Source: Candidatus Iainarchaeum sp. (GTDB lineage: Archaea > Iainarchaeota > Iainarchaeia > Iainarchaeales > JAFCCJ01). From it: a DNA stretch of 10,630 nt. Shown here in pieces: positions 1 to 10,630 of the stretch (position 1 is its first letter; the number at the start of each line of letters is the position of its first letter). The DNA is taken from positions 1 through 10,630 of the forward strand of contig JBDRHK010000091.1 in the NCBI GenBank assembly GCA_043816965.1, read 5' to 3'. The position numbers were made by a program, and so were the translations under genes. The notes beneath the pieces are model-generated. The model saw nothing but the letters and a program-made list of their open reading frames with translations. It ran no database searches and was not told the origin of the DNA.

Positions 1-13
1 TTTCTATTTAAGC

Positions 14-1099
14 ATGAAAATTGAAGCAAAGACATTGGTCACGCCAGATATGGTGAAGCCAACAAGGAAAAATTTCAGGATGAGGGGCGTTTTCAACCCT
101 TCTGCCGTAAGGCTGAAAAACAGGAAAATTCTCCTCTATGCAAGGGTTGCTGAAACTCCCTACCATGATGAAAAGACATTCCTCGCCCCAAGGTGCTGTG
201 GCACGCACAAGCTCGAGTGGCAGATTGAAAAGTTAAGCAGGAGAAAGATGACGCTTGCCCCCGACTATTTTTGGCTTTCTGATGAAATCTCAAGGCTCCC
301 CACAATTTCCCACTTCAGGAAAATACTTCTTGACAAAAGCGGCCTGGAAGTGGAAAAGGTAAGTGACAAGCCTGATTTTTATGGGATAAGGGATGACGGC
401 GATTTTGGTGTTGAGGATCCAAGGATCACTTATTTAAAAAATGAAAATAAATATGCGATGACCTATGTTTCTGTTTCTTTGCACAGCGGAGTTTCAACAT
501 CACTTGCAACTTCCAAAAACCTTAACAGCTGGAAAAGGGAGGGCATAATCTTCAGGCAGCAGAACAAGGATGTTGTGATCTTCCCCGAAAAAATTAATGG
601 CTATTATGTCGCCCTTCACCGACCTGAGGGAACTATGATTTTCAGCAAGCCAAGCATCTGGATTTCCTATTCAAAGGACCTCTTGTTCTGGGGAAGGGAC
701 AGGCCATTGCTTGACCCGAGAAACCATGCCTGGGATTATTTGCGGATTGGGGCAGGAACAGTCCCCCTAAAAACAGACGAGGGCTGGCTTGAGATTTACC
801 ATGGCGTTAAACTCACGAAAAAGAGGGACCCTGATTCACACAAAATTTACATGGCAGGAGCTCTCCTTTTTGACCTTAAGAACCCTGCAAAAGTGATAGG
901 AAGGACACGCGCAAAGGAACCATTGTTCGGTCCTGATCTTGACTCTGAAAAAAAAGGATTTAACGATAAGGTTGTATTCCCTTCGGGCTTAGTTCAAACT
1001 TCAGACAAAAAAAGCGTGCTCATTTATGGTGGCGGAGCTGATACTGTGATTACTGTTCGCAAGATGAGCATCAAAAGTGTTCTCAACTCGATGAAGTGA
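14..1099 (+). CDS. Glycoside hydrolase family 130 protein (five-bladed beta-propeller), probable beta-mannoside phosphorylase
   Basis: 361-aa ORF with GH130/DUF377 motifs in the expected order: VFNPSA, GVEDPRIT (catalytic Asp), YAMTY, NKDVVIFPEKING, LHRP, WD..RIGAG, WLEIYHG, VVFPSG, IYGGGAD. No signal peptide. Confidence 0.9.
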   Translation: MKIEAKTLVTPDMVKPTRKNFRMRGVFNPSAVRLKNRKILLYARVAETPYHDEKTFLAPRCCGTHKLEWQIEKLSRRKMTLAPDYFWLSDEISRLPTISHFRKILLDKSGLEVEKVSDKPDFYGIRDDGDFGVEDPRITYLKNENKYAMTYVSVSLHSGVSTSLATSKNLNSWKREGIIFRQQNKDVVIFPEKINGYYVALHRPEGTMIFSKPSIWISYSKDLLFWGRDRPLLDPRNHAWDYLRIGAGTVPLKTDEGWLEIYHGVKLTKKRDPDSHKIYMAGALLFDLKNPAKVIGRTRAKEPLFGPDLDSEKKGFNDKVVFPSGLVQTSDKKSVLIYGGGADTVITVRKMSIKSVLNSMK

Positions 1100-1151
1100 C
1101 AAAAATCGCCAGAGGTTATCTTTTTTATTTGTTTCACCCACTAAAGTATAC

Positions 1152-3359
1152 GTGTTGAATCTTTTTTCTTCAAGCAAGGTTGTCTTTCTCTCAACCTACC
1201 CGCCGAGGGAATGCGGCATCGCAACTTTTACTAAAGACCTCTCTGACGCAATCCACAAAAAGTTCGGTTCACATGTCCAGCCAAAAGTAATCGCCATGGA
1301 AGAGAACCAGTCCGAATTCAGGGTCTACAATAAAAAGGTTGTTTTCAATATAAATGAGGATGATCTGGAAAGTTATGGGGCCGCAGCAAAAAAAATAAAC
1401 TCCATGAGGAGCATAAAAATGCTGAATATACAGCATGAATTCGGCATTTTTGGCGGGGATTGGGGGGAGAATATCCTTCATCTGATGGAACTTGTCAAGA
1501 AAAAAATAATCGTCACCTTCCACACCGTTCTGGAGGAACCTGAAGAGGATTTGAAAAGAGTTGTGGAGCGTATATCTGAAAAGAGCGACAGAATTGTTGT
1601 AATGACAAACAATGCAAAGGAAATCCTTGCCAATGATTATGGAATTTCTGCTGAAAAGATTGTTGTCATCCCCCATGGCGGGCCAAACGTCAACTTCTCA
1701 AAGCAGAAAAACAGCCTGAAGAAAAAATATGGCCTTAAGAATTCAAAAGTTCTTCTCACCTTTGGCCTGTTAAGCAGGGGCAAGGGCGTGGAGTTGGTCA
1801 TAAAGGCAATGCCTGAAATACTTAAGAAGCATCCCGATGCCTTTTACCTTGTTATTGGGGAAACACATCCTAAAGTCAGGGAGGAGGAAGGGGAATCCTA
1901 CAGGCTTGAGCTTAAGGAACTTGCCAAAACACTGGGTGTCGAGAAATCCGTTAAATTCCTGGACAAATATCTCAGCCTTAATGAAATAGTGGATTTTTTG
2001 AATTTATCGGATGTTTATCTTGCGCCCTCAATAGACCCGAAGCAGATATGCAGCGGAACAGTTAGCTATGCCATGGCTGCAGGCAAGGCGATAATCTCGT
2101 CCCGAAACAAGTACAATGAGGAGGTCCTTGCAAATGGAAGGGGAATTATGTTAAAGCGAAACAACCCGAAAGTTTTTGCAAAGAGGGCAATCGAACTTCT
2201 GGATGATGGCAAGCTCAAGAGAAACTTTGAAATTAAGGCATTTGATTACAGCCGGAGAATGACCTGGCAGAATGTTTCGGCAAAGTACTACAATACATTT
2301 TCAAATCTTTTGCCTGGGGAGTTCAACTACTTTAGCAAGCTTCCAAGAATCAATTTTAGGCACTTTTACCACATGACTGATGATTTTGGGATGATACAGT
2401 TTGCGGATTACTCCAAACCACTGAGGGAGAGCGGTTACACCCTTGATGACAATGCAAGGGCGATTTCGGTCTCCGCGAAAGGTTATGGGATGTACAAATC
2501 ACAGAAGATGATCCGTGCGGCAGATACTTTTATGGGATTTATTGAAAAATGCCAGATAAGTGATGGGTATTTCCATAATGTCCTTGACATAAATCGGGAT
2601 TTTGCCGATGACAGGGGAAGCGAAGACAGCTTCGGAAGGGCAATACACGCTATGGGCAATGTGCTTAAAAGTTCCCTTCCTGAACAGTACAAGTTAAGGG
2701 CAAAGAAAGTTCTTGAGAAGGCGATTGGCAGGAGCGATGAACTGATTTCCCCCAGGGCGCAGGCCAACTCCCTGATAGGAATGGCCTATGCAAAGGATTT
2801 GTTGGATGTTAATCAGGAGGCAATTGAAAAAATTGCCAATTCCCTGGTTTCAAAATTTGAGGAAACCACCGATGGCAATTGGGAATGGTTTGAGAAATAT
2901 CTCACCTATGGGAACAGCATTATCCCTGAGGCCCTTTTTGAGGCCGGAAAATTTGATGAAACCGGAAAGACAGGGAAGGTCGCAGCGACTTCCATGGACT
3001 TTCTGACCAAAACCCATTTCATCGGGGAAAAGCTTGTCCCGATAGGCCAGGATGGCTGGTTTAAGAAAGACCAGGAAAGGTCCTTCTACGACCAGCAGCC
3101 CATTGAGGCAGGTGGAATGACTATCGCATACCTTAAGGCATATAATGCCACAGGCGACAGGGATTATCTGGCAAACTCAAGGAAATCATTTGAATGGTTT
3201 TTGGGAAGAAACTCCTCCAACCAGATGGTTTATGACGATTCAACAGGTGGCTGTTTTGATGGCATCACAAGCAACGGCGTAAACCTGAACCAGGGGGCGG
3301 AATCACTGCTGGCCTACCTCAACGCGAGATTGACGCTGCAGAAAGCGCTTGCGCATTAA
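1152..3359 (+). CDS. Glycosyltransferase family 4 (mannosyltransferase-like subgroup) fused to a C-terminal six-hairpin glycosidase-like domain
   Basis: 735 aa, GTG start. The N-terminal ~385 aa are GT-B: STYPPRECGIATFT, IQHEFGIFGG, TFHT, VIPHG, TFGLLSRGKG, GETHP, Q..SGTVSYAMAAGKAIISS. The C-terminal ~340 aa are helical with MTDDFGMIQFA, GYTLDDNARA, SEDSFGRA, WFE.YLTYGN, DQQPIEA, WFLGRN, GGCFDG, NQGAES. Confidence 0.88.
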   Translation: MLNLFSSSKVVFLSTYPPRECGIATFTKDLSDAIHKKFGSHVQPKVIAMEENQSEFRVYNKKVVFNINEDDLESYGAAAKKINSMRSIKMLNIQHEFGIFGGDWGENILHLMELVKKKIIVTFHTVLEEPEEDLKRVVERISEKSDRIVVMTNNAKEILANDYGISAEKIVVIPHGGPNVNFSKQKNSLKKKYGLKNSKVLLTFGLLSRGKGVELVIKAMPEILKKHPDAFYLVIGETHPKVREEEGESYRLELKELAKTLGVEKSVKFLDKYLSLNEIVDFLNLSDVYLAPSIDPKQICSGTVSYAMAAGKAIISSRNKYNEEVLANGRGIMLKRNNPKVFAKRAIELLDDGKLKRNFEIKAFDYSRRMTWQNVSAKYYNTFSNLLPGEFNYFSKLPRINFRHFYHMTDDFGMIQFADYSKPLRESGYTLDDNARAISVSAKGYGMYKSQKMIRAADTFMGFIEKCQISDGYFHNVLDINRDFADDRGSEDSFGRAIHAMGNVLKSSLPEQYKLRAKKVLEKAIGRSDELISPRAQANSLIGMAYAKDLLDVNQEAIEKIANSLVSKFEETTDGNWEWFEKYLTYGNSIIPEALFEAGKFDETGKTGKVAATSMDFLTKTHFIGEKLVPIGQDGWFKKDQERSFYDQQPIEAGGMTIAYLKAYNATGDRDYLANSRKSFEWFLGRNSSNQMVYDDSTGGCFDGITSNGVNLNQGAESLLAYLNARLTLQKALAH

Positions 3360-4103
3360 TCAGATTAATTTCCCCGCATCCTCATCCACGATAATTGTTG
3401 CGTTCTTGTGGTTCCTGAGAATTGAGGAAGGAATATTTTTATTTGGCTTGCCCTTCAGTGTTTTTGAAATCGCCTTCGCCTTCTCTGCGCCGCTCGCCGC
3501 AAGCACAATCCTTTTCGCTTTCATGAGTGTGCTTAGGCCGAGGGTGATTGCCCTTCTCGGCGGTCTGCCCTTCATCCCCTTTCTCTTCCTCTCAATCGTT
3601 GAGCGCTTCAGTTTCACCACACGGGTTTTGGAAACGAAACTTGCCCCAGGCTCATTGAAACCGATGTGTGCATTGGCACCGATGCCGAGCAGCAAAAGGT
3701 CAATTCCTTTGCGCGCAATAAACGATTCAAAACGCGCGCACTCTGTCCTCAAAGGTCGGTCAGTATTAAACAGCATAATATTTTTCTTTTTGAAATTAAA
3801 TTTCGCGAATAAATTCTTTTCGAAGTAATGTGTTAAAGTGTCCCTCTCATCACTTGCCCCTATGTATTCATCCAGTTCAACAAAGTATGCCCTTGAAAAG
3901 CTGACCTTCCTTTTCCCGTATGCCTTCGCCAATTCTTTGTAAGCCCCCCTTGGCGTATTACCTGAGGCAAGTGCAAGAACTGAAGAGGGTTTGCGTTTGA
4001 GTTGGCCAATAATTTCCTGAGCAATTTCCTTGGACAATTCAGCGTAATTTTTTACCTTTTTTACGCAAAGCATTATTTGCCTGTTCTCTTTATTTTGCCT
4101 CAT
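3360..4103 (-). CDS. nagB: Glucosamine-6-phosphate deaminase-like protein (NagB family)
   Basis: Motifs LALASGNTP, ELDEY (catalytic Asp), GIDLLLLGIGANAHIGFNEPG (catalytic His/Glu), AITLG....KAKRIVLAASG.EKA, P.SIL.NH. Start moved from the track's 4421 to the ATG at 4103 (alternative ATG at 4073), because the longer version lies antisense to the PIG-L gene and the NagB fold starts at about MLCVKKVKNY. Confidence 0.85.
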   Translation of the reverse strand: MRQNKENRQIMLCVKKVKNYAELSKEIAQEIIGQLKRKPSSVLALASGNTPRGAYKELAKAYGKRKVSFSRAYFVELDEYIGASDERDTLTHYFEKNLFAKFNFKKKNIMLFNTDRPLRTECARFESFIARKGIDLLLLGIGANAHIGFNEPGASFVSKTRVVKLKRSTIERKRKGMKGRPPRRAITLGLSTLMKAKRIVLAASGAEKAKAISKTLKGKPNKNIPSSILRNHKNATIIVDEDAGKLI

Positions 4104-4158
4104 ACCACCAAAAAAGAGGGAATAACAGTATTTATTACTTTGCCATAAATCCCTATAT
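4104..4158. promoter_or_regulatory. Divergent intergenic region with a shared, bidirectional archaeal TATA-like element
   Basis: 55-bp gap between the ATG at 4103 (-) and the ATG at 4159 (+). The AT block TATTTATTA at 4129-4137 reads TTTATTA on + and TAATAAATA on -, about 22-30 nt from each start. Confidence 0.5.
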
Positions 4159-4737
4159 ATGGTAAAGGCATTGGTAGTTGTTGCGCATCCTGATGATGAG
4201 ACAATCTGGATGGGTGGCAAGATTTTGCGGGAGAAGGGCTGGAATTGGACAATTCTCTCATTATGCAGAAAGGACGATAAGGACAGGAAGCCGAAATTTT
4301 TCAGGGTTTGTTCCGAGTTGAATGCGCGCGCTTTTATTTCAGATTTGGATGATGAGAATCCTGAAAAGAAACTTCCGCTTGATGAGGTGGTGAAGCGCGT
4401 TGAACCGATTGCGATGGACAAGGAGTTTGATTATGTTTTCACGCACGGAAAGAACGGCGAGTATGGCCACAACCGCCACATCGAAGCCAACAAAGCTGTC
4501 CGTGCAATGGTTAAGGACGGATTGGTTAAGTGCAAGGAGTTGTTCGAGTTTTCCTACACACACAAAGAAAATCCGTCTTGCTGCGTGCCGAACGCCCGCG
4601 CGCGCGAGATTTTTGTGCTGAATGCGCGCGAAATCAAAAAGAAAAGGTATTTAATAAACAAAGTCTACTGTTTTGATATGGGCAGCTTCGAATCACTGAG
4701 CTGTTCAGACAAAGAAACGTTCAACAAGGTTTTGTGA
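4159..4737 (+). CDS. PIG-L/LmbE family Zn-dependent N-acetyl-sugar deacetylase
   Basis: 192 aa. N-terminal LVVVAHPDDETIWMGG and second motif VFTHG..GEYGHNRH (H-x-x-H). Its TGA stop directly abuts the next ATG (TGAATG). Confidence 0.88.
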   Translation: MVKALVVVAHPDDETIWMGGKILREKGWNWTILSLCRKDDKDRKPKFFRVCSELNARAFISDLDDENPEKKLPLDEVVKRVEPIAMDKEFDYVFTHGKNGEYGHNRHIEANKAVRAMVKDGLVKCKELFEFSYTHKENPSCCVPNARAREIFVLNAREIKKKRYLINKVYCFDMGSFESLSCSDKETFNKVL

Positions 4738-5943
4738 ATGGAGATTGCAGAGACCGTTGCCGGAGAGCAACAAACAGATAAGAAAGACGCTTCAGAAAAA
4801 TTCAAGAGCGTTATCTTCTATCCTTTTCCTGCCGAACTCGATGGCGTGAGCCTGCAGGGAGATTTCCTTTATAAGGGGCTGAAAGAAAATGGATATCCTG
4901 TAAAGCCCTGCGACAGGGACGCCACCTTTGAGAAGGATGTGCTGTTCGGAAGTTTTAAACCAGATGTTTCAATCGGAATAGGCTTTTGGGGGGACACACC
5001 AAACATAATTATTGATCCAATGAAAAGGGGAATTACTCCTGTGCCATGGATTAATGCCGATGGATGGGTGGCGAATTATCATGATATTCTCAACGAACTC
5101 CCCCTGATAATGGTCACAAGCAATTGGGTTAAGGAAACCTATAGGAGAGACGGTGTTTTTAACCCGAATATGTATCCCATGCCAATAGGAATTGACACAA
5201 AACAAATGAGCCCTATCCCAAAAGATGACCCTAAAGTCGTTAAGATGCGCGAACTTCTTGGGGTTAAGCCTGATGAGAAACTAATCCTAACGATTGGGGG
5301 GGACACAACCAGCAAGGGCTTTCAGGAAGTTCTTAAGGCGCTGGGGAAGATAAATGGCGATTTCAGCAAGTGGAAATATGTGGGAAAAAGCTGGGAGGCA
5401 AAGGAGCCAAGGTACCATTATAGGGACGAGAGAAAAATAATTAAGGATGAAGACCTGCCCATGAAAAGGATAAAGTATATTGATGGCCCGATTTCAAGGG
5501 ATACCATGAGGACACTTATTTGTGCAGCCGATATCTATGCCGCCCCAAGCAGGATTGAGGGATTTGGAATGATTCAGGTTGAGGCGCAATCATGTGGAAT
5601 TCCTGTTCTGGGAATAGATGCAATGGGGGTAAAAGACACGGTTGTCCATGGTGAAACCGGCTTCCTTGCAAAAGTCGGGGAAACCATTGATTTGGAGGAG
5701 GAGTGGGTTTACAAAAACATGGGCTTCAAGGAAAAGCATATTGTAAAATTCGATGAGCCCAAAACTTTTGCCTGCAGGGCTGATGTCGATGATTTGGCGG
5801 AATATCTGCTAAAAATGCTTACTGATGATGAAATGATGCAAAAGATGGGTGAAAAGGCAAGGGAACATGCGGTAAAGAATTTTGATTACCATAAGGTTTC
5901 CCTGGATATTGCGCACCTGATTGAGGAAAAATTGAAAATTTAA
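4738..5943 (+). CDS. Glycosyltransferase family 4 protein (retaining GT-B)
   Basis: 401 aa. VTSNWVK, PIGID, SKGFQEVLKAL, AADIYAAPSRIEGFGMIQVEAQSCGIPV (intact E-x7-E), DTVVHGETGFL, MGEKAREHAVKNFDY. Confidence 0.92.
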   Translation: MEIAETVAGEQQTDKKDASEKFKSVIFYPFPAELDGVSLQGDFLYKGLKENGYPVKPCDRDATFEKDVLFGSFKPDVSIGIGFWGDTPNIIIDPMKRGITPVPWINADGWVANYHDILNELPLIMVTSNWVKETYRRDGVFNPNMYPMPIGIDTKQMSPIPKDDPKVVKMRELLGVKPDEKLILTIGGDTTSKGFQEVLKALGKINGDFSKWKYVGKSWEAKEPRYHYRDERKIIKDEDLPMKRIKYIDGPISRDTMRTLICAADIYAAPSRIEGFGMIQVEAQSCGIPVLGIDAMGVKDTVVHGETGFLAKVGETIDLEEEWVYKNMGFKEKHIVKFDEPKTFACRADVDDLAEYLLKMLTDDEMMQKMGEKAREHAVKNFDYHKVSLDIAHLIEEKLKI

Positions 5944-5983
5944 ATAATTCCCCCAAACACCAATCCTTTCGGAGTTCTGGAAT

Positions 5984-6553
5984 TCACATCTTAATTTTAT
6001 CTTTCACATATCTGGGGCATTTCCTAAGGTATTTTTTGAGCGTGTCCCTGTCGCTTCTTTTAAAAAGATTTCTCTCAACCTCTTCCGAAAGTGGCTCACG
6101 GAAATAAGCGAAATCTATGAGGGTTTTTTCAACGTCGGACACAGGAAGCCAGTAATCGTAGTATTTTACCGGCTCGAAGCCAAAAAACATCTTTCGGCTT
6201 ATCCTCCTCAATAAGGCATTAGTGCCCATAACCTCCCTAATTCCTGTGCGCACCTTTTTTGGCGTAATTATAACCGGATTTGTCTCCTGCTCCCAGAGGT
6301 TGCGCAGGGAAAGCGCTTCCTGAAGCCCATAATAAAATGGCGAAAAGGCAAAACCTGAAACACTTACATCATCCTTGAAGCTATAAAAGCCGCGTGTTAT
6401 CCTGTGTATTTCGCCACTACTTTCCAGATTGTGCAAAAGAAGCTGCGCATATCCCTTGCTGATGCCCTTTTTTGCCAGGAATATCCTTAAATCCCTTATT
6501 GAAAATGCGGGCTTCTCCCCAAAATGTTCCCTGACATATTTCACATATTTCAT
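5984..6553 (-). CDS. AbiEi-like type IV antitoxin / winged-helix transcriptional regulator
   Basis: 189 aa. N-terminal wHTH (FSIRDL...YAQLLLHNLESSGEIHRITRGFY), central YYGLQEALSLRNL, C-terminal VSDVEKTLIDF. 4-bp ATGA overlap with the upstream nucleotidyltransferase gene. Confidence 0.78.
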   Translation of the reverse strand: MKYVKYVREHFGEKPAFSIRDLRIFLAKKGISKGYAQLLLHNLESSGEIHRITRGFYSFKDDVSVSGFAFSPFYYGLQEALSLRNLWEQETNPVIITPKKVRTGIREVMGTNALLRRISRKMFFGFEPVKYYDYWLPVSDVEKTLIDFAYFREPLSEEVERNLFKRSDRDTLKKYLRKCPRYVKDKIKM

Positions 6554-7194
6554 TTCACAGGCCTCCCCAATGCATTAAGCATCTGCCCATAGGACGGTAT
6601 CGCGCCTGAATAGATTAATGTGCGGAGGTTTTTTTCATCAACAGGCCCTATTCCCCCGGCCAGCAAATCCCGAATGCCCTTTTTCACCGCCCCTCTTTCA
6701 GTTATCTTCATGTTGAGGAAATAGATATCATAAAAATCCCTGACAAGCTTCCTGTTACGGTATGCATCTATTTTCTCCAGCAGGAGGCTTTCCGGGGAAA
6801 GGGTAAAAACATCCATATGGCTTCCGTCTGCCTTCTCATATGCCCTCACAACAGGGTTTTTTGCTGTTCGCAGCGCCAGTTCAAGCCTGACCTCAACAAC
6901 CCCATTACTGACTGATGAAAAGATTGTGTTTGCTGTCTGCCTGAATTTCCGCAGCTCAAGCCCTGAGGAAAGCGCTCTTTTGCTGAATTCCTGCCTGAAA
7001 TTTTTTCCTGCTTTCAGGTAGAAATCAAGGTCTTCTGAAAACCTGTTGCCCTGGTAGCATCTCCATATTGCAGTGCCACCATGCAGCACCGCCCCCTGTG
7101 AGATTCCGTATACTATATCAACAACCTCGTCCTGCAGCAGGGCCAGGTCTCTGTGAAGCCTCTTTCTAAGCCTTTTGAATAGGGGAATTTTCAT
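6550..7194 (-). CDS. AbiEii/AbiGii (DUF1814) nucleotidyltransferase toxin
   Basis: 214 aa. Signature LHGGTAIWRCY...RFSEDLDF, followed by LLLEKIDA and RDFYDIY (conserved Lys and RD.YD motifs). Confidence 0.9.
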   Translation of the reverse strand: MKIPLFKRLRKRLHRDLALLQDEVVDIVYGISQGAVLHGGTAIWRCYQGNRFSEDLDFYLKAGKNFRQEFSKRALSSGLELRKFRQTANTIFSSVSNGVVEVRLELALRTAKNPVVRAYEKADGSHMDVFTLSPESLLLEKIDAYRNRKLVRDFYDIYFLNMKITERGAVKKGIRDLLAGGIGPVDEKNLRTLIYSGAIPSYGQMLNALGRPVK

Positions 7195-7207
7195 AATTAA
7201 TTAAATC

Positions 7208-7239
7208 AACCAAACTTATATAAAAGTATATGTTTGGTT
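7208..7239. promoter_or_regulatory. Inverted-repeat operator candidate enclosing the TATA box of the toxin-antitoxin operon
   Basis: AACCAAAC-t-TATA-taaaag-TATA-t-GTTTGGTT: 12 of 13 arm positions are complementary around a 6-nt centre. The minus strand reads TTTTATATAA at 7225-7216, 22-31 nt upstream of the toxin ATG at 7194. Confidence 0.7.
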
Positions 7240-7282
7240 TATTCTATATTTTTTAGCAATCATTAGAATCTGCGGCTATTTG

Positions 7283-7291
7283 AATTAAATA
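7283..7291 (+). promoter_or_regulatory. Candidate TATA box for the secreted-protein gene
   Basis: AATTAAATA ending 24 nt upstream of the ATG at 7315; positional argument only. Confidence 0.35.
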
Positions 7292-7314
7292 GGGGAAAGC
7301 ACTAATATTAAGCA

Positions 7315-8184
7315 ATGAAAAGAATAATTCTCTTGCTTTGCCTTTTAATTCTGGCAAATTCGGCACTTGCCTGCAGCAAGATTTACATAACAATAACTGC
7401 CGATGACAATCTGGAATTATTTTTTAATGGGCAATCCCTGGGATCACGCGAATACTGGCTGGAGGCAAAAACCTTCGAGGCAAAGCCAAAAATCGGGGTG
7501 AATGTCATTGCCGTGAAGGCAATAAACTCCACAGGTTCAAAAGGAATTCTTGTGGATGCCATCTACTGCGGGAATAAAGTTTATTCAGATGATACTTGGA
7601 AAGCCACCTCATCCTCAGTGGTAAACTGGTGGGCTGCCACAAGTTACAATGACAGTTCCTGGGGCTATGCAACTGATTTTGGCGCATATGGTGTTAAGCC
7701 CTGGGAAATGCTGGTCATTGGGTTTCCTGAGGAAACAGAGGCCCACTGGATTTGGGCAAGTTCAGGGGAAGTTGCATATTTTAGGAAAACCTTCACCCTA
7801 ATCGATGAGGAATGTGACGAAGAATGGTCCTGCACAGAATGGACTGAATGCATAAATGAAACCCAAAACAGAGAATGCACAGATTCCAACAAATGCGGGG
7901 AGATTTCATCAAGGCCTTCGCAGGAACAGATATGCCTTGAGGCGATTGAAATTGATTCATTTGGCTGCGAAATTTCCTCATCACAAGTGATAATGAACAC
8001 CTGCTCCCGCGAGGAACTTCAATACCAGTATGGATCGGCAGCAAGTGTAAGAAATATAGTCAAAAATTTAATTCCGGACATAAGATATGACATTACTATA
8101 GAAAACATCACTAAAAAAACAACCAGCACAGTTTCAATGAGAAGCAACAGTTCCGGAATTTTGGAATTCAGCCCAGGATTATAA
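7315..8184 (+). CDS. Secreted protein: signal peptide, galactose-binding-like (CBM67/rhamnosidase-N-like) lectin domain, six-Cys TSP1-like module, short beta-rich tail
   Basis: MKR + hydrophobic core + ALA cleavage site. Lectin-like motifs ITADDNLELFFNG, GVNVIAVKAIN..G.KG, SDDTWKA, YNDSSW..A, YGVKPW, AHWIW, YFRKTF. Then C.EEWSCTEWTEC...Q.REC.D.N.CG.....P...Q.C. No C-terminal TM helix. Confidence 0.7.
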   Translation: MKRIILLLCLLILANSALACSKIYITITADDNLELFFNGQSLGSREYWLEAKTFEAKPKIGVNVIAVKAINSTGSKGILVDAIYCGNKVYSDDTWKATSSSVVNWWAATSYNDSSWGYATDFGAYGVKPWEMLVIGFPEETEAHWIWASSGEVAYFRKTFTLIDEECDEEWSCTEWTECINETQNRECTDSNKCGEISSRPSQEQICLEAIEIDSFGCEISSSQVIMNTCSREELQYQYGSAASVRNIVKNLIPDIRYDITIENITKKTTSTVSMRSNSSGILEFSPGL

Positions 8185-9303
8185 TTTCAGCGGGTTCTTC
8201 CTGCTTTTCACCGCTTCATATGCGAGCAGATAACTTCCCGCACTCCATGCCTGGTGCCTGCTTCCTTCAGCCTTTTTAGTTTTTGGATGAATCCATTCAT
8301 TGAAATCCCAGTCAAACCTGTGCCCCAAGCTATTTGCTTTCGCAAGCCTTTCCAGTTCCTCTTCAGCCTGCGCATACTTCTTTGCCTCCACAAGGGCTGC
8401 CACATAAAACCCGCCGACAAATGGCCAGATTCCGCCATTGAGGTAGTCGCCAGGAGTTCCTGCCAAAGAGGCCTTGTAATAATCCTGCCATTCCTTTGAG
8501 CCCTTTTTTATTGGGGGATAAATAACCTTCATCGGGAACGGCCTGTCAATCCTTTTCCTGTGGACAAAGCCGAGTATTTTCCTCGCCTGTGCAGGGCTCG
8601 CAAGGCCAAAAACAATTGCAAGCATATTCCCCAGGGAATCAAACCATTCCTCCTTCTCGCTGTAATGCGGACCATGGTCCTTCCAGTGCCAGGGGAGGAA
8701 ATATTCCAATCCAGAATCCCACAAATAATAATCAACCTTTTTTTTGTATTCTTTCAAATCATTTGCATTTCCGCCCGCCTTCTTCGCCCCATAGTAAAGC
8801 GCCTGTGTGTTTATGCAGTGCCCATACCTGTGGGGGAAGCAGTCCATCCAGTCAGAGGTCGGAAGCTGTTCAGGGAGCATGTCCTCTCCCGCGTCCTGGA
8901 ATGCGGTCCACTGCATCGCTTTTTCAATATTCTTTTTGTGCCTGCCCCATAAATCGTTCCCGAATCTCTTTTTGTAAAAATAATTCCCTATCACAAACCA
9001 AAGCGAGGAATCCAAAGTCGCGAAAGTGACCAAATCCCTTTTCTCAAAAACATCAACACAGTTCGGAATCTGCCCGTTTTTGCTCTGGTGCTTTGCCAAA
9101 GTCCTCAAACTTGCCGCAAAAACCTTCCTGAATTTCTTCGTATGGGCGCTTGCGCCAATAAGGGAAATCATGGAATCCCTTGCCCAAACCGAGGCATATC
9201 CATACTTCCCCCCTGAGGCATAAAGCCCATTAGGGGTTGAGCAGATATCCATAACCTCTATAGCCTTCTCCCTGGCCTCCTCAATCAGTTTCCCGCCTTT
9301 CAT
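8179..9303 (-). CDS. Six-hairpin glycoside hydrolase, GH100 (neutral invertase)-like / amylo-alpha-1,6-glucosidase-like
   Basis: 374 aa. VWARDSMIS, GQIP, DSSLWFVIG, DWMD (putative catalytic Asp), NTQALYY, FDSLGN, YLNGGIWPFVGGFY, FNEW (putative catalytic Glu), QAWSAG. No signal peptide. Confidence 0.85.
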   Translation of the reverse strand: MKGGKLIEEAREKAIEVMDICSTPNGLYASGGKYGYASVWARDSMISLIGASAHTKKFRKVFAASLRTLAKHQSKNGQIPNCVDVFEKRDLVTFATLDSSLWFVIGNYFYKKRFGNDLWGRHKKNIEKAMQWTAFQDAGEDMLPEQLPTSDWMDCFPHRYGHCINTQALYYGAKKAGGNANDLKEYKKKVDYYLWDSGLEYFLPWHWKDHGPHYSEKEEWFDSLGNMLAIVFGLASPAQARKILGFVHRKRIDRPFPMKVIYPPIKKGSKEWQDYYKASLAGTPGDYLNGGIWPFVGGFYVAALVEAKKYAQAEEELERLAKANSLGHRFDWDFNEWIHPKTKKAEGSRHQAWSAGSYLLAYEAVKSRKNPLKL

Positions 9304-9325
9304 TGGAATGATTAAGTAGAAATAG

Positions 9326-9340
9326 AATATAATTGTTTGC
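9326..9340 (-). promoter_or_regulatory. Candidate BRE/TATA for the six-hairpin hydrolase gene
   Basis: Minus strand reads GCAAACAATTATATT; the TTATA core is about 25-29 nt upstream of the ATG at 9303. Confidence 0.4.
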
Positions 9341-9342
9341 TT

Positions 9343-9945
9343 TTACTTCTCATTTTCCCGCCATTCCCTTAGTTTCTGCCTTACTGCTTTCTGCCTCTCC
9401 TTCGGCAACTTTTTAATAAACGCAAGAACCTTTTCAGGCTCAATCCTGTCAACCTCAAACCAAACAGGCCTATTATTGTTGGCCCTGAATAAAACATTCA
9501 TTGGTCTTGGATTTACAATAATTCCTGCTTTTGCCATCTCCCCGACTATCCCCCTTGTTTCTCTCTCAACTTTCGCGGCGTGCGGAGCATAATCCGGATA
9601 TTTTGAATTGTCCACACTCCGTTTTCCTGCTTTTAGAATCTTTTTATAATACTCCTCAACAGCTTTCACACTTTCAGGAGTTGCTTTAACATGATAAGTT
9701 ACAATTTCCTGTGGGCCTGCCTTTGCACCAAGAACTACTTTAGCAATTTTACGGGGAAATAAAAGATTTCCAATTTGAAGCCTTAATTTTTTACCCTCAA
9801 TAATATCTGGAAAAAGCGGAATCACTTGCCTCCTAACAACTACATTCCTTCCCTTATGCCTGCCTAAATGGAAAACTCTTGCCTCTTCACCCTGAACAAT
9901 CAGATTAGGCCTTTTATTGTTAGGTCTTCTTTGCATAAGCCTCAC
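9343..9945 (-). CDS. Hypothetical basic protein with degenerate protein-kinase-like motifs
   Basis: 200-aa ORF filling the gap between neighbours (GTG at 9945, or ATG at 9936). LIVQGEEARVF, NVVVRR, EMAKAGIIVNPRPMNVL and PVWFEVD appear in the order of kinase subdomains I, II, VIb and VII. The gene is likely real; the fold call is tentative. Confidence 0.6.
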   Translation of the reverse strand: MRLMQRRPNNKRPNLIVQGEEARVFHLGRHKGRNVVVRRQVIPLFPDIIEGKKLRLQIGNLLFPRKIAKVVLGAKAGPQEIVTYHVKATPESVKAVEEYYKKILKAGKRSVDNSKYPDYAPHAAKVERETRGIVGEMAKAGIIVNPRPMNVLFRANNNRPVWFEVDRIEPEKVLAFIKKLPKERQKAVRQKLREWRENEK

Positions 9946-10028
9946 TTCTAATATCTTTGAATACTCTTATTAATATAATATAGGCCAAATCCAGAAGCTT
10001 TAAATTCTTGCCCGCAATTACTGATTAT
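9946..10028. promoter_or_regulatory. AT-rich divergent promoter region with two TATA-like boxes
   Basis: Plus strand CAGAAGC-TTTAAA (TTTAAA at 9999-10004, 25 nt before the ATG at 10029). Minus strand TATTATATTAATA at 9980-9968, about 25-35 nt before 9945. Confidence 0.5.
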
Positions 10029-10630
10029 ATGGAATTCTTTTTTCTCAAAGACCTTTCTAGGATAAGGCCTCGGTTTAATAATTTCGTAAACCAGCTTGCA
10101 GAAGTCGACCCTAAAAAATGGCCAAAGGAAACTATTCTTAAAGAATTGAAAGGAACCTATGATTGCCTTGTTGCAGTGGAAAAAGGAAAATTGCAGGGAT
10201 TTGTTTCCTTTAATAGGGATAGGGAGAATGGCAATACCCTAAGAGCTTTTGGCTGGTTTGATTTGGCCAGATATTTTTCCGATAAGCTTGCAGAGTCCGA
10301 GAGAAGTGGGAGCAAAAGGGAAATTGCGAAATACCGCCGGGAATTGGAGCAGGTCGGCGGAAAACCAAAACCGTCCAAGAATCCACTTTCATTCAAGCTT
10401 GCCCGCAAAATATTTGAGCTCGCCAGAAGAGAGGGGTTCAAAAGCATACAGATGGGCGAGACTGATAAGCCCACAAAGAAAATGCTTGAAATAGTCAGCA
10501 GGAACAAGGGAAGGTTTGATGTGTCAAAGGATGTAGAAGTAATTCCTGAGCGTAGAAGGATTGAATTTCCGGGGTTTAAGAGCGCCGCGATTGTCCTGGG
10601 CTGCTATGCCCTCCCTGGCGAAAAACTGCC
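10029..10630 (+). CDS. Hypothetical protein with a GNAT-like N-terminal domain; 3'-truncated by the window end
   Basis: Not in the ORF track (no stop in window). Manual translation gives 200 open codons: MEFFFLKDLSRIRPRFNNFVNQLAEVDPKKWPKETILKELKGTYDCLVAVEKGKLQGFVSFNRDRENGNTLRAFGWFDLARYFSDKLAESERSGSKREIAKYRRELEQVGGKPKPSKNPLSFKLARKIFELARREGFKSIQMGETDKPTKKMLEIVSRNKGRFDVSKDVEVIPERRRIEFPGFKSAAIVLGCYALPGEKL. A TATA-like box lies upstream. Confidence 0.75.
   Translation, partial: MEFFFLKDLSRIRPRFNNFVNQLAEVDPKKWPKETILKELKGTYDCLVAVEKGKLQGFVSFNRDRENGNTLRAFGWFDLARYFSDKLAESERSGSKREIAKYRRELEQVGGKPKPSKNPLSFKLARKIFELARREGFKSIQMGETDKPTKKMLEIVSRNKGRFDVSKDVEVIPERRRIEFPGFKSAAIVLGCYALPGEKL

Follow-up and report, generated by a model that had tools for sequence, protein, structure and literature searches.

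A candidate two-module locus for cytosolic sugar cycling in Candidatus Iainarchaeum and other ultra-small archaea and bacteria

What might an archaeon with a tiny genome do with six carbohydrate-active enzymes encoded within 9.3 kb? The question is raised by contig JBDRHK010000091.1 of Candidatus Iainarchaeum sp., whose 10,630 nucleotides (positions 1 to 10,630 of the forward strand; hereafter the window) encode a GH130 enzyme, a fusion of a GT4-like glycosyltransferase with a six-hairpin domain, the deaminase NagB, a PIG-L/LmbE-like de-N-acetylase, a second GT4 glycosyltransferase (GT4b) and a GH100-like glycosidase. A sequence-only reading had taken the six as one cytosolic pathway that makes and then degrades a small glycoside of mannose and glucosamine (GlcN), and Pfam, NCBIfam and PDB profiles place all six families where this reading had located them. 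Our own interpretation, to which we give slightly less than even credence, is that ultra-small archaea and bacteria share a conserved locus for the cycling of sugars in the cytosol, of which a reduced version is present in the window and which comprises two linked modules: GH130 with the fusion (module 1), and PIG-L, GT4b and the GH100-like hydrolase (module 2).

The comparison on which this interpretation is based covers 80 loci, the best of 597 stretches matched in a genome collection via the fusion protein, a relative of which is encoded in 590 of the 597. The loci derive from DPANN archaea, to which the Iainarchaeota belong (Nanobdellati), Bathyarchaeia, Asgard archaea, the candidate phyla radiation (CPR), Bacteroidota, Verrucomicrobiota, Pseudomonadota, Cyanobacteriota and others. 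The closest one, a Candidatus Iainarchaeum contig (L001), shares 84.5% nucleotide identity with window positions 1-5956 and aligns again at 7277-8168. GH130, the fusion, PIG-L, GT4b and the GH100-like gene stand together in seven of the 80 loci, four from DPANN lineages (L002 and L004, Iainarchaeota-like; L013, archaeal; L014, Woesearchaeota) and three from CPR lineages (L018, Liptonbacteria; L032, Spechtbacteria; L071, Wolfebacteria). Recurrent co-location in DPANN and CPR genomes had been named beforehand as the test of the proposed pathway, and the reappearance of the same families side by side in other genomes indicates that the arrangement is not due to chance. Gene order varies: in the CPR loci GH130, fusion and GH100-like gene face GT4b and PIG-L, and in L013 the order is fusion, PIG-L and GT4b, with the GH100-like gene on the opposite strand and then GH130. 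Moreover, in the CPR loci the GH100-like gene is the next gene after the fusion, with a gap of 5 nt in L018, a gap of 32 nt in L032 and an ATGA overlap of 4 nt in L071, and it is translationally coupled to the fusion there.

The six enzymes are cytosolic. In a crude test, none of them contains a 19-residue Kyte-Doolittle (KD) window above 1.25, in agreement with the earlier statement that they lack signal peptides and transmembrane segments. The accompanying statement that flippase, polymerase, sugar transporter and epimerase genes are missing was likewise borne out among the 11 window ORFs of at least 150 aa, three of which are without a family match.

We consider GH130 first, since it begins the cluster (14-1099, plus strand, 361 aa). 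The protein scores 148.5 bits against the Pfam GH130 model (E 2.9e-43; cut-off 26 bits), which assigns it to these five-bladed propellers. Its best PDB match is the β-1,2-mannobiose phosphorylase Lin0857 (1.4e-50), followed by a 1,2-β-oligomannan phosphorylase (9fj8, 9.9e-44) and Uhgb_MS (2.4e-42). The NCBIfam models for β-1,2-mannobiose phosphorylases give 255 and 180 bits, under their equivalog cut-offs of 550 and 450, and by sequence the enzyme thus appears to resemble these phosphorylases without being an equivalog. According to the available part of one study (PMC4599007), the catalytic Asp is invariant in GH130 and is preceded by Glu, not Tyr, in the β-1,2 (GH130_NC) group, basic phosphate-binding residues are replaced by Glu in the hydrolases, and the phosphorylases are cytoplasmic enzymes of soluble sugars. 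We aligned 59 of the 63 GH130 ORFs from the loci; of the other four, two are fragments and two are fused or over-long. E134-D135 is invariant in all 59 and aligns with the motif of Lin0857; R137, K185, R203 and H263, candidate phosphate ligands, are retained in 57-58 of the 59 and are identical in the Lin0857 alignment. The retention of both the acidic pair and the basic residues fits a phosphorylase better than the Glu-substituted hydrolases.

The GH130 enzymes are not uniform. In a quick IQ-TREE tree, seven of them, namely those of the window, L001, L003, L004, L013 and L014 and one of L061, form a clade (type A; SH-aLRT 100) apart from the other 52, the usual fusion partners. Among the NCBIfam models this clade is nearest to the Lin0857 type and the usual partners to the Teth514_1789 type. 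In L013 and L014 the GH130 of the window type adjoins the GH100-like gene and GT4b instead of the fusion.

The fusion gene (1152-3359, plus strand, 735 aa) belongs to a very large family, with at least 7918 matches among 8000 candidates scored. Its GT-B (GT4-like) domain (1152-2333) scores 82.9 bits against Glycos_transf_1 (E 2.6e-23; cut-off 26.4 bits) and matches MshA best in the PDB (3c4q, 2.9e-13). However, it lacks the EX7E motif, which is replaced by Q298-x2-S-G-T-x2-Y306. Gln occupies the position of the first Glu in 77 of 77 homologous domains, the window counted, and the exact Q..SGT..Y pattern is found in 72 of them. Tyr306 faces the second Glu of EX7E in the alignment with MshA, and an aromatic residue holds that position. 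In EX7E, as described in the accessible part of PMC8760489, the two Glu residues contact the donor sugar (the first) and bind the ribose hydroxyls (the second), with an importance that depends on the enzyme. An invariant Lys211 near the motif is retained and may correspond to the Lys that binds pyrophosphate in other members of GT4.

The second half of the fusion (2334-3359) is an (alpha/alpha)6 six-hairpin domain of the YPO2471 type. Its profile matches the uncharacterised PDB entry 7tem at 1.7e-26 and cellobiose 2-epimerase at 5e-4. With its AlphaFold model (pLDDT 95.4), Foldseek returned 7tem as the best match (TMq 0.81), together with cellobiose 2-epimerases, GlcNAc (N-acetylglucosamine) 2-epimerases and mannose isomerase (TMq 0.68-0.74, E 2e-10 to 1e-8); the AGE-type matches, including YihS (TMq 0.64-0.74), ranked over GH76 and GH9. 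The domain is therefore predicted from its model to have a sugar-2-epimerase (AGE)-like fold. AGE 2-epimerases use a pair of catalytic histidines, and the PDB title of 8wbu names an H247F mutant. Among 42 sequences of the domain, D432, D433, R436, R535, D703 and E717 are retained throughout, and no histidine reaches a conservation of 90%. We therefore do not file the domain in the AGE superfamily: the fold is held in common, the histidine-based chemistry is not. No Pfam model is dedicated to the domain. Assignment to a known glycoside hydrolase family is not supported, the Pfam matches being weak and partial (GH127 in 20 of 42 sequences, C5-epimerase in 19, GH88 in 16 and GH76 in 8), and a paralogous relationship with the GH100-like protein was rejected (profile-profile probability 1%). 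A search of the ESM Atlas returned only the protein family itself, and the literature search found no functional paper on 7tem/YPO2471.

The two proteins of module 1 are closely associated. By tblastn, 60 of the 80 loci contain a relative of GH130; in 59 of them it is no more than 4 kb from the fusion, and in one it is 8.3 kb away. About half of the 20 remaining loci have a flank shorter than 1.6 kb. GH130 is mostly the immediate same-strand neighbour of the fusion, at a distance of -3 to about 200 nt and often with an overlap of 4 nt. In a gammaproteobacterial metagenome-assembled genome (L030, 1168-4838) a single ORF of 1091 aa comprises GH130, GT4 and six-hairpin domain, and split forms exist as well in which GT4 and six-hairpin domain are separate genes. 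A cupin of the mannose-6-phosphate isomerase (PMI) type, 110-130 aa long, occurs in 11 loci and is located directly upstream in L030, L033, L039 and L053. A further generic GT4 of ~346 aa, related to GT4b at the family level only, stands beside the fusion in six loci of other phyla (L010, L034, L037, L046, L061 and L062); a canonical transferase partner may hence be a general feature of module 1.

Module 2 is centred on PIG-L (4159-4737, plus strand, 192 aa; Pfam E 4.3e-11) and GT4b (4738-5943, plus strand, 401 aa; Glycos_transf_1 E 3.2e-22). The two genes are adjacent in eight of the 80 loci (L001, L002, L004, L013, L014, L018, L032 and L071). They overlap or abut in the window and in L013; in the window the PIG-L stop codon abuts the GT4b start, and GT4b is translationally coupled to PIG-L. 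The deacetylase shows the HXDD + H motif, with H10-P-D12-D13 and H96/H104/H107 invariant in nine of nine sequences. The spacer to H107 measures 94 residues, just short of the range of 97-148 in the available part of a review that extends to 2014 (PMC4101496), in which the characterised LmbE-like enzymes all use substrates with a GlcNAc core. In the PDB the PIG-L profile matched PH0499 only (E 0.0035).

GT4b is a canonical family member with 79.3 bits against Glycos_transf_1 (cut-off 26.4) and an intact EX7E motif (EGFGMIQVE). Its closest PDB matches are the sucrose-phosphate synthase (SPS) of T. elongatus (6kih, 2.6e-19), a BshA-like protein (3e-16) and MshA (3e-14). The NCBIfam models for BshA and MshA give 68 and 54 bits, both far under their cut-offs. 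DPANN and CPR relatives with at least 53% identity make up at least 120 clusters, not one of which has an informative name, and DPANN and CPR copies are 50-55% identical to each other.

The third member of module 2, the GH100-like (alpha/alpha)6 glycosidase (8179-9303, minus strand, 374 aa), is encoded in eight of the 80 loci (L002, L004, L013, L014, L018, L019, L032 and L071), the sequence of L019 ending after this gene. The Pfam GH100 match is confined to the C-terminal 145 aa (residues 221-364, E 3.1e-17), and GDE_C fits residues 35-357 about equally well (E 9.3e-15). The modelled fold is closest to GH100: with the AlphaFold model (pLDDT 93.9), ranks 1-25 were taken by the GH100 invertases InvA, InvB and AtCINV (TMq 0.74-0.79, E about 3e-15), followed by GH63 mannosylglycerate hydrolase (TMq 0.70), amylo-1,6-glucosidase and glucosylglycerate hydrolase (E about 1e-9 to 1e-8). 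The protein is ~80 aa shorter than the invertases (TMt 0.64-0.68), and membership of GH100 by sequence does not extend over its whole length. E336, which aligns to InvB Glu415, is retained in 48 of 48 sequences, and D154 in 47 of 48; the latter aligns to the Asp of the InvB MIDRR motif in a weakly aligned stretch (i-E 44). The catalytic residues proposed for GH100 are Asp188 and Glu414 in InvA numbering (PMC6995568, as far as its text is available). The family has 199 representatives at E <=1e-30 among 1.84 billion sequences. Of four distant relatives (P0420, P0427, P0443 and P0508), three are fused N-terminally to a HAD domain resembling sucrose-phosphate phosphatase (SPP) and one to a PRK-type kinase. 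CAZy-based catalogues, in their accessible portions, list the GH100 genes of CPR and Woesearchaeota under 'sucrose/polysaccharide' genes (PMC9868632, PMC11606122). The fusions to SPP-like domains, together with the GlcNAc-core substrates of the LmbE-like enzymes in the available text of PMC4101496, were counted in favour of a product of the small-glycoside class.

How could the sugars be recovered? NagB (3360-4073, minus strand, 237 aa), probably a glucosamine-6-phosphate deaminase, matches B. subtilis NagB (2bkv) across residues 5-236 at 1.2e-44; the NCBIfam nagB models give 204 and 184 bits (cut-offs 326 and 237), and the next family, 6-phosphogluconolactonase, gives 75 bits. The homology begins at the ATG at 4073. 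A longer 'NagB' ORF of 353 aa reaching to 4421 was dismissed as an artefact of ORF calling, since its chance-open extension of 117 codons (4074-4421, minus strand) overlaps PIG-L, and a 159-aa ORF antisense to NagB (3349-3828, plus strand) was likewise rejected as a chance-open frame. The 85-bp AT-rich region between the divergent NagB and PIG-L genes (4074-4158) probably carries promoters, judging from its sequence; it holds TTTATTA at 4131-4137, 22-28 nt ahead of the PIG-L ATG, which might be an archaeal TATA box.

In two relatives the deaminase is the C-terminal half of a PfkB::NagB fusion of 536-544 aa (L002, 2657-4267, minus strand; L004, 12187-13821, minus strand). The PfkB half matches Pfam at 1e-39 and is nearest to ribokinase, under the cut-off. 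A stand-alone PfkB kinase is encoded divergently from PIG-L in L014 (17765-18673, minus strand). Neither the window nor L001 has kept the PfkB half. The union of kinase and deaminase in one protein is an argument for degradation of GlcN or fructose to fructose-6-phosphate and not for synthesis. In addition, the neighbours of the fusion in Woesearchaeota include a ROK kinase, a PMI-like cupin, triosephosphate isomerase, a DeoC/LacD aldolase, a 2-hydroxyacid dehydrogenase and a GHMP kinase nearest to the anomeric kinases HddA and fucokinase; L013 also has glyceraldehyde-3-phosphate dehydrogenase and phosphoglycerate kinase, and L018 a bifunctional phosphoglucose isomerase/PMI over the TIGR02128 cut-off. 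The suggestion that the sugars are salvaged into glycolysis thereby gains support.

Further observations bear on the linkage of the modules. For 12 of the 31 closest fusion clusters, matching lengths of the longest contigs suggest that they lie on the same contigs as a GT4b cluster. Archaeal and CPR copies of GT4b and the GH100-like protein are 44-55% identical. The module 2 proteins of CPR share 42-55% identity with those of Iainarchaeota, and those of L013 share 47-52%. Thus, CPR module 2 is about as close to Iainarchaeota as is that of another DPANN archaeon, which suggests transfer of the module between the domains.

Taken together, the account that we prefer, possible though short of probable, is a system that builds and recycles sugar compounds in the cytosol, one part of it concerned with a mannoside and the other with a GlcN-glycoside; both parts would return sugar to fructose-6-phosphate. 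GH130 would interconvert a β-1,2-type mannoside and alpha-mannose-1-phosphate (Man-1-P), and the fusion, with its non-canonical donor site and 2-epimerase-like domain, would make or remodel the partner sugar. GT4b would move GlcNAc from a nucleotide sugar onto a small acceptor, the coupled PIG-L would strip the acetyl group to leave a GlcN-glycoside, and the GH100-like glycosidase would later cleave it; the freed GlcN would then reach fructose-6-phosphate via a sugar kinase, lost in the window, and NagB. The enzyme families with their key residues, their location in the cytosol and their recurrent proximity are observed; the donor sugars, the acceptor and the order of these steps are inferred, and both modules may serve one compound or pool. 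The joining of a GT4 and PIG-L pair to a hydrolase and a deaminase implies turnover, and a compound containing mannose and GlcN is probably built and then recycled by the locus.

Several results weigh against this account. The constant six-enzyme unit of the sequence-only reading did not survive the comparison, as NagB is present in only three of the 80 loci (L001, L002 and L004, all Iainarchaeota), the pair of GH130 and fusion is spread well beyond DPANN and CPR, and the set falls into two modules. Most module 1 loci, from bacteria and Woesearchaeota, are without module 2 within 10 kb, and no GH100-like gene was found in the ~7.4 kb after GT4b in L001, the closest relative. As all loci were picked via the fusion, the frequency of module 2 without module 1 lies outside this sample. 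Besides the missing kinase, no phosphatase, nucleotide-sugar synthase or phosphomannomutase is encoded in the window. The fusion is no ordinary GT4 with a glycosidase attached, and without EX7E its GT domain is perhaps no nucleotide-sugar transferase at all. Finally, a retaining GT4 cannot make the β-mannoside of GH130, and GlcN has no 2-OH for a β-1,2 link, so that a single common compound is not obvious. Of the original build-and-degrade idea, co-location and salvage have hence gained evidence, whereas the unity of the set and a shared intermediate have not.

These points lead to the question of whether the modules are merely neighbours. They might represent two independent pathways, a mannoside/mannose-phosphate cycle of GH130 and the fusion and a GlcN-glycoside cycle of GT4b, PIG-L, the GH100-like hydrolase and NagB, which cluster as both feed fructose-6-phosphate in very small, packed genomes. 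This would readily explain why most loci have module 1 alone, why module 2 of L014 is 6.5 kb from the fusion with glycolysis genes between, why there are two GH130 clades, that of the window lying beside GH100-like gene and GT4b and not the fusion in L013 and L014, and why the chemistry gives no obvious common intermediate. Nevertheless, we consider independence rather unlikely: in L018, L032 and L071 the fusion is immediately succeeded by the GH100-like gene, and despite several rearrangements the five families have remained neighbours in both archaea and bacteria. The pairwise identities of four of the proteins also covary (Spearman 0.41-0.72), a weak point, as relatedness alone could give this. 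A different possibility is that the locus scavenges imported β-mannosides and GlcNAc oligosaccharides from hosts or the environment and that the transferases re-use the released sugars, a scheme already put forward for the GH130 cluster of Thermoanaerobacter. The sole PDB match of the PIG-L profile, PH0499 (E 0.0035), fits such a role. The archaeal chitin route consists of a PIG-L-family deacetylase, a kinase and a deaminase. In L071 a gene for a transporter of the major facilitator superfamily lies between the GH100-like gene and GT4b; the Thermoanaerobacter cluster described below combines two GH130 genes, Man-1-P guanylyltransferase, GT4 and a hypothetical protein with an ABC transporter and GH5 (PMC4264767, available part); and GH130 with a sugar 2-epimerase, the fold of which is seen in the six-hairpin domain, is a known mannan-catabolic pair (accessible text of PMC12871903). 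However, the window is without a transporter, as are six of the seven full loci, none of the six enzymes is a secreted glycosidase, two transferases of which one is coupled to a deacetylase suit synthesis better than breakdown, and the six-hairpin domain has no conserved histidines. Scavenging therefore seems improbable to us.

A role at the membrane would be a further alternative, namely synthesis of the head group of a glycolipid or of a glycan on the cell surface; one candidate is a GlcN-lipid, of either the GPI or the GlcN-phosphatidylglycerol type, to which mannose is subsequently added. GT4 with PIG-L follows the logic of PIG-A/PIG-L, many GT4 enzymes work on lipids at the membrane surface, and GT4b weakly matches the model of GlcNAc-phosphatidylglycerol synthase (46 bits against a cut-off of 480). 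On the other hand, neither the window nor the conserved neighbourhood contains a flippase, polymerase or membrane protein. The surrounding genes encode kinases, isomerases and enzymes of glycolysis, the GH100-like protein has relatives that carry a fused sugar-phosphate phosphatase, and GH130 phosphorylases are cytoplasmic and act on soluble sugars (PMC4599007, available part). We hold this to be the least probable of the explanations considered. Going beyond the build-and-recycle system that we prefer, many prokaryotes might run an undescribed, ATP-sparing cytosolic mannoside cycle in which GH130 works with an EX7E-less GT-B enzyme that uses Man-1-P or another non-nucleotide donor and carries an epimerase-fold domain, joined in DPANN and CPR to the making and breaking of a new solute or reserve of the GlcN-amino-disaccharide type, e.g. 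sucrose- or trehalose-like. We regard this bolder version as very doubtful; if true, such a GlcN-glycoside would hold both carbon and nitrogen in store.

The span of the six enzymes also contains genes that stand outside the pathway. The sequence-only reading, correct as to the six enzymes, had missed three of them: AbiEi (5984-6553, minus strand; PADLOC 1.5e-14), AbiEii (6550-7194, minus strand; PADLOC 4.7e-19), both also recognised by Pfam, and a gene for a protein of 289 aa. The abi genes are adjacent with an overlap of 4 nt and constitute an AbiE type IV toxin-antitoxin pair. Window positions 5957-7276 are missing from L001, where 1-5956 and 7277-8168 align to contiguous sequence; the pair is therefore a 1.32-kb insertion, which separates GT4b from the next gene of the sugar cluster. 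A repeat search around it revealed no clear target-site duplication. The 289-aa gene (7315-8184, plus strand) occurs, among the 80 loci, in the window and in L001 (7810-8710) only. In L002 and L004 the GH100-like gene comes directly after GT4b with no such gene in between, and the 289-aa gene is therefore a later arrival too, common to the window and L001. Its product is secreted (signal-peptide-like N-terminus, KD 2.18). The protein is Cys-rich, and weak matches, including one to a rhamnosidase N-domain, hint at a lectin/rhamnosidase-N-like beta-sandwich; an ESM Atlas search with it gave nothing useful. In L001 the position of the GH100-like gene is taken by two proteins of ~1050 aa (8769-15208), which come after the 289-aa gene and contain heparinase II/III-like and CBM96-like segments. 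The 11 plausible genes of the window are completed by an ORF of 200 aa (9343-9945, minus strand) and one of at least 207 aa with an open 3' end (10008-10628, plus strand), both without a family match or a relative in the 80 loci; the latter gave a very weak hint of a GNAT acetyltransferase (E 0.087). Scans for tRNA genes and Rfam families found nothing in the window.

Although DPANN and CPR organisms possess very small genomes with few biosynthetic pathways, they have kept this locus. Its retention beside glycolysis genes, with module 2 proteins 44-55% identical across domains, points to an important sugar metabolite, be it a reserve, a solute or a precursor; the cross-domain identity further suggests that the two domains have exchanged the module as a whole. 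The unit of GH130, GT-B and six-hairpin domain is found in at least 590 species-level genomes of many phyla and has no characterised member. The non-canonical donor site of the fusion and its epimerase-like domain could reveal new carbohydrate chemistry of use for glycoside synthesis, and the locus represents a defined enzyme set for expression and testing.

How does the locus compare with known systems? A literature search for GH130 with LmbE/PIG-L, GH100 and NagB, or for DPANN with GH130, returned catalogues only and no paper that treats the set as a pathway. The earlier statement that no such pathway has been described thus stands for the set as a whole; a cluster of GH130 with GT4 and a hypothetical protein had, however, already been drawn. 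In this cluster of Thermoanaerobacter sp. X-514 (Teth514_1785-1796; Chiku et al. 2014, PMC4264767), cytosolic GH130 β-1,2-mannoside phosphorylases likewise lie beside a GT4 and a 'hypothetical protein', whose homologues bear the name 'glycosyltransferase' in Table S3. Going by these names, Teth514_1785/1786 are probably a split form of the fusion. Chiku et al. proposed that Man-1-P from phosphorolysis feeds the mannosyltransferase, and in the available part of their paper no source of β-1,2-mannan was found in Thermoanaerobacter. Unlike the window, the cluster has an ABC transporter, GH5 and Man-1-P guanylyltransferase, and PIG-L, a second GT4, a GH100-like protein and NagB do not appear in it as far as that text shows.

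Module 2 is reminiscent of MshA/MshB, BshA/BshB and PIG-A/PIG-L, in which a canonical EX7E GT4 such as GT4b is coupled to an HXDD + H deacetylase. In contrast to these, the window has no cysteine ligase or other later step, and a hydrolase and a deaminase accompany the pair. For module 1, prokaryotes are not known to hold a β-1,2-mannan reserve. The mannogen cycle of Leishmania (PMC8950772) is likewise a cytosolic make-and-break system of β-1,2-mannosides via Man-1-P; it is, however, eukaryotic and depends on GT108 transferase-phosphorylases, and GT4, six-hairpin, PIG-L and GH100 partners are not described there. Enzymes of the β-1,2 GH130 type themselves show weak GDP-mannose transferase activity (PMC12814180). 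The mannan pair of cellobiose/mannobiose 2-epimerase and GH130 mannosylglucose phosphorylase, whose genes in Cellvibrio are 2 bp apart (PMC12871903, accessible text), resembles the window in that a domain of the same (alpha/alpha)6 fold lies beside or is fused with GH130. It differs in that the window GH130 is of the β-1,2 and not the β-1,4 type and the six-hairpin domain is without the conserved His and fused to a GT-B domain.

The sucrose cycle of SPS, SPP and GH100 alkaline/neutral invertase provides a further parallel: GT4b is nearest to SPS (6kih), the GH100-like protein is nearest to InvA/InvB with the catalytic Asp and Glu kept, and relatives of the latter carry SPP-like domains. The window, in contrast, is without the phosphatase, and its hydrolase is ~80 aa shorter and matches by sequence in its C-terminal third only. 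Moreover, as PIG-L is always present, the sugar is probably GlcNAc or GlcN and not glucose as in the sucrose cycle.

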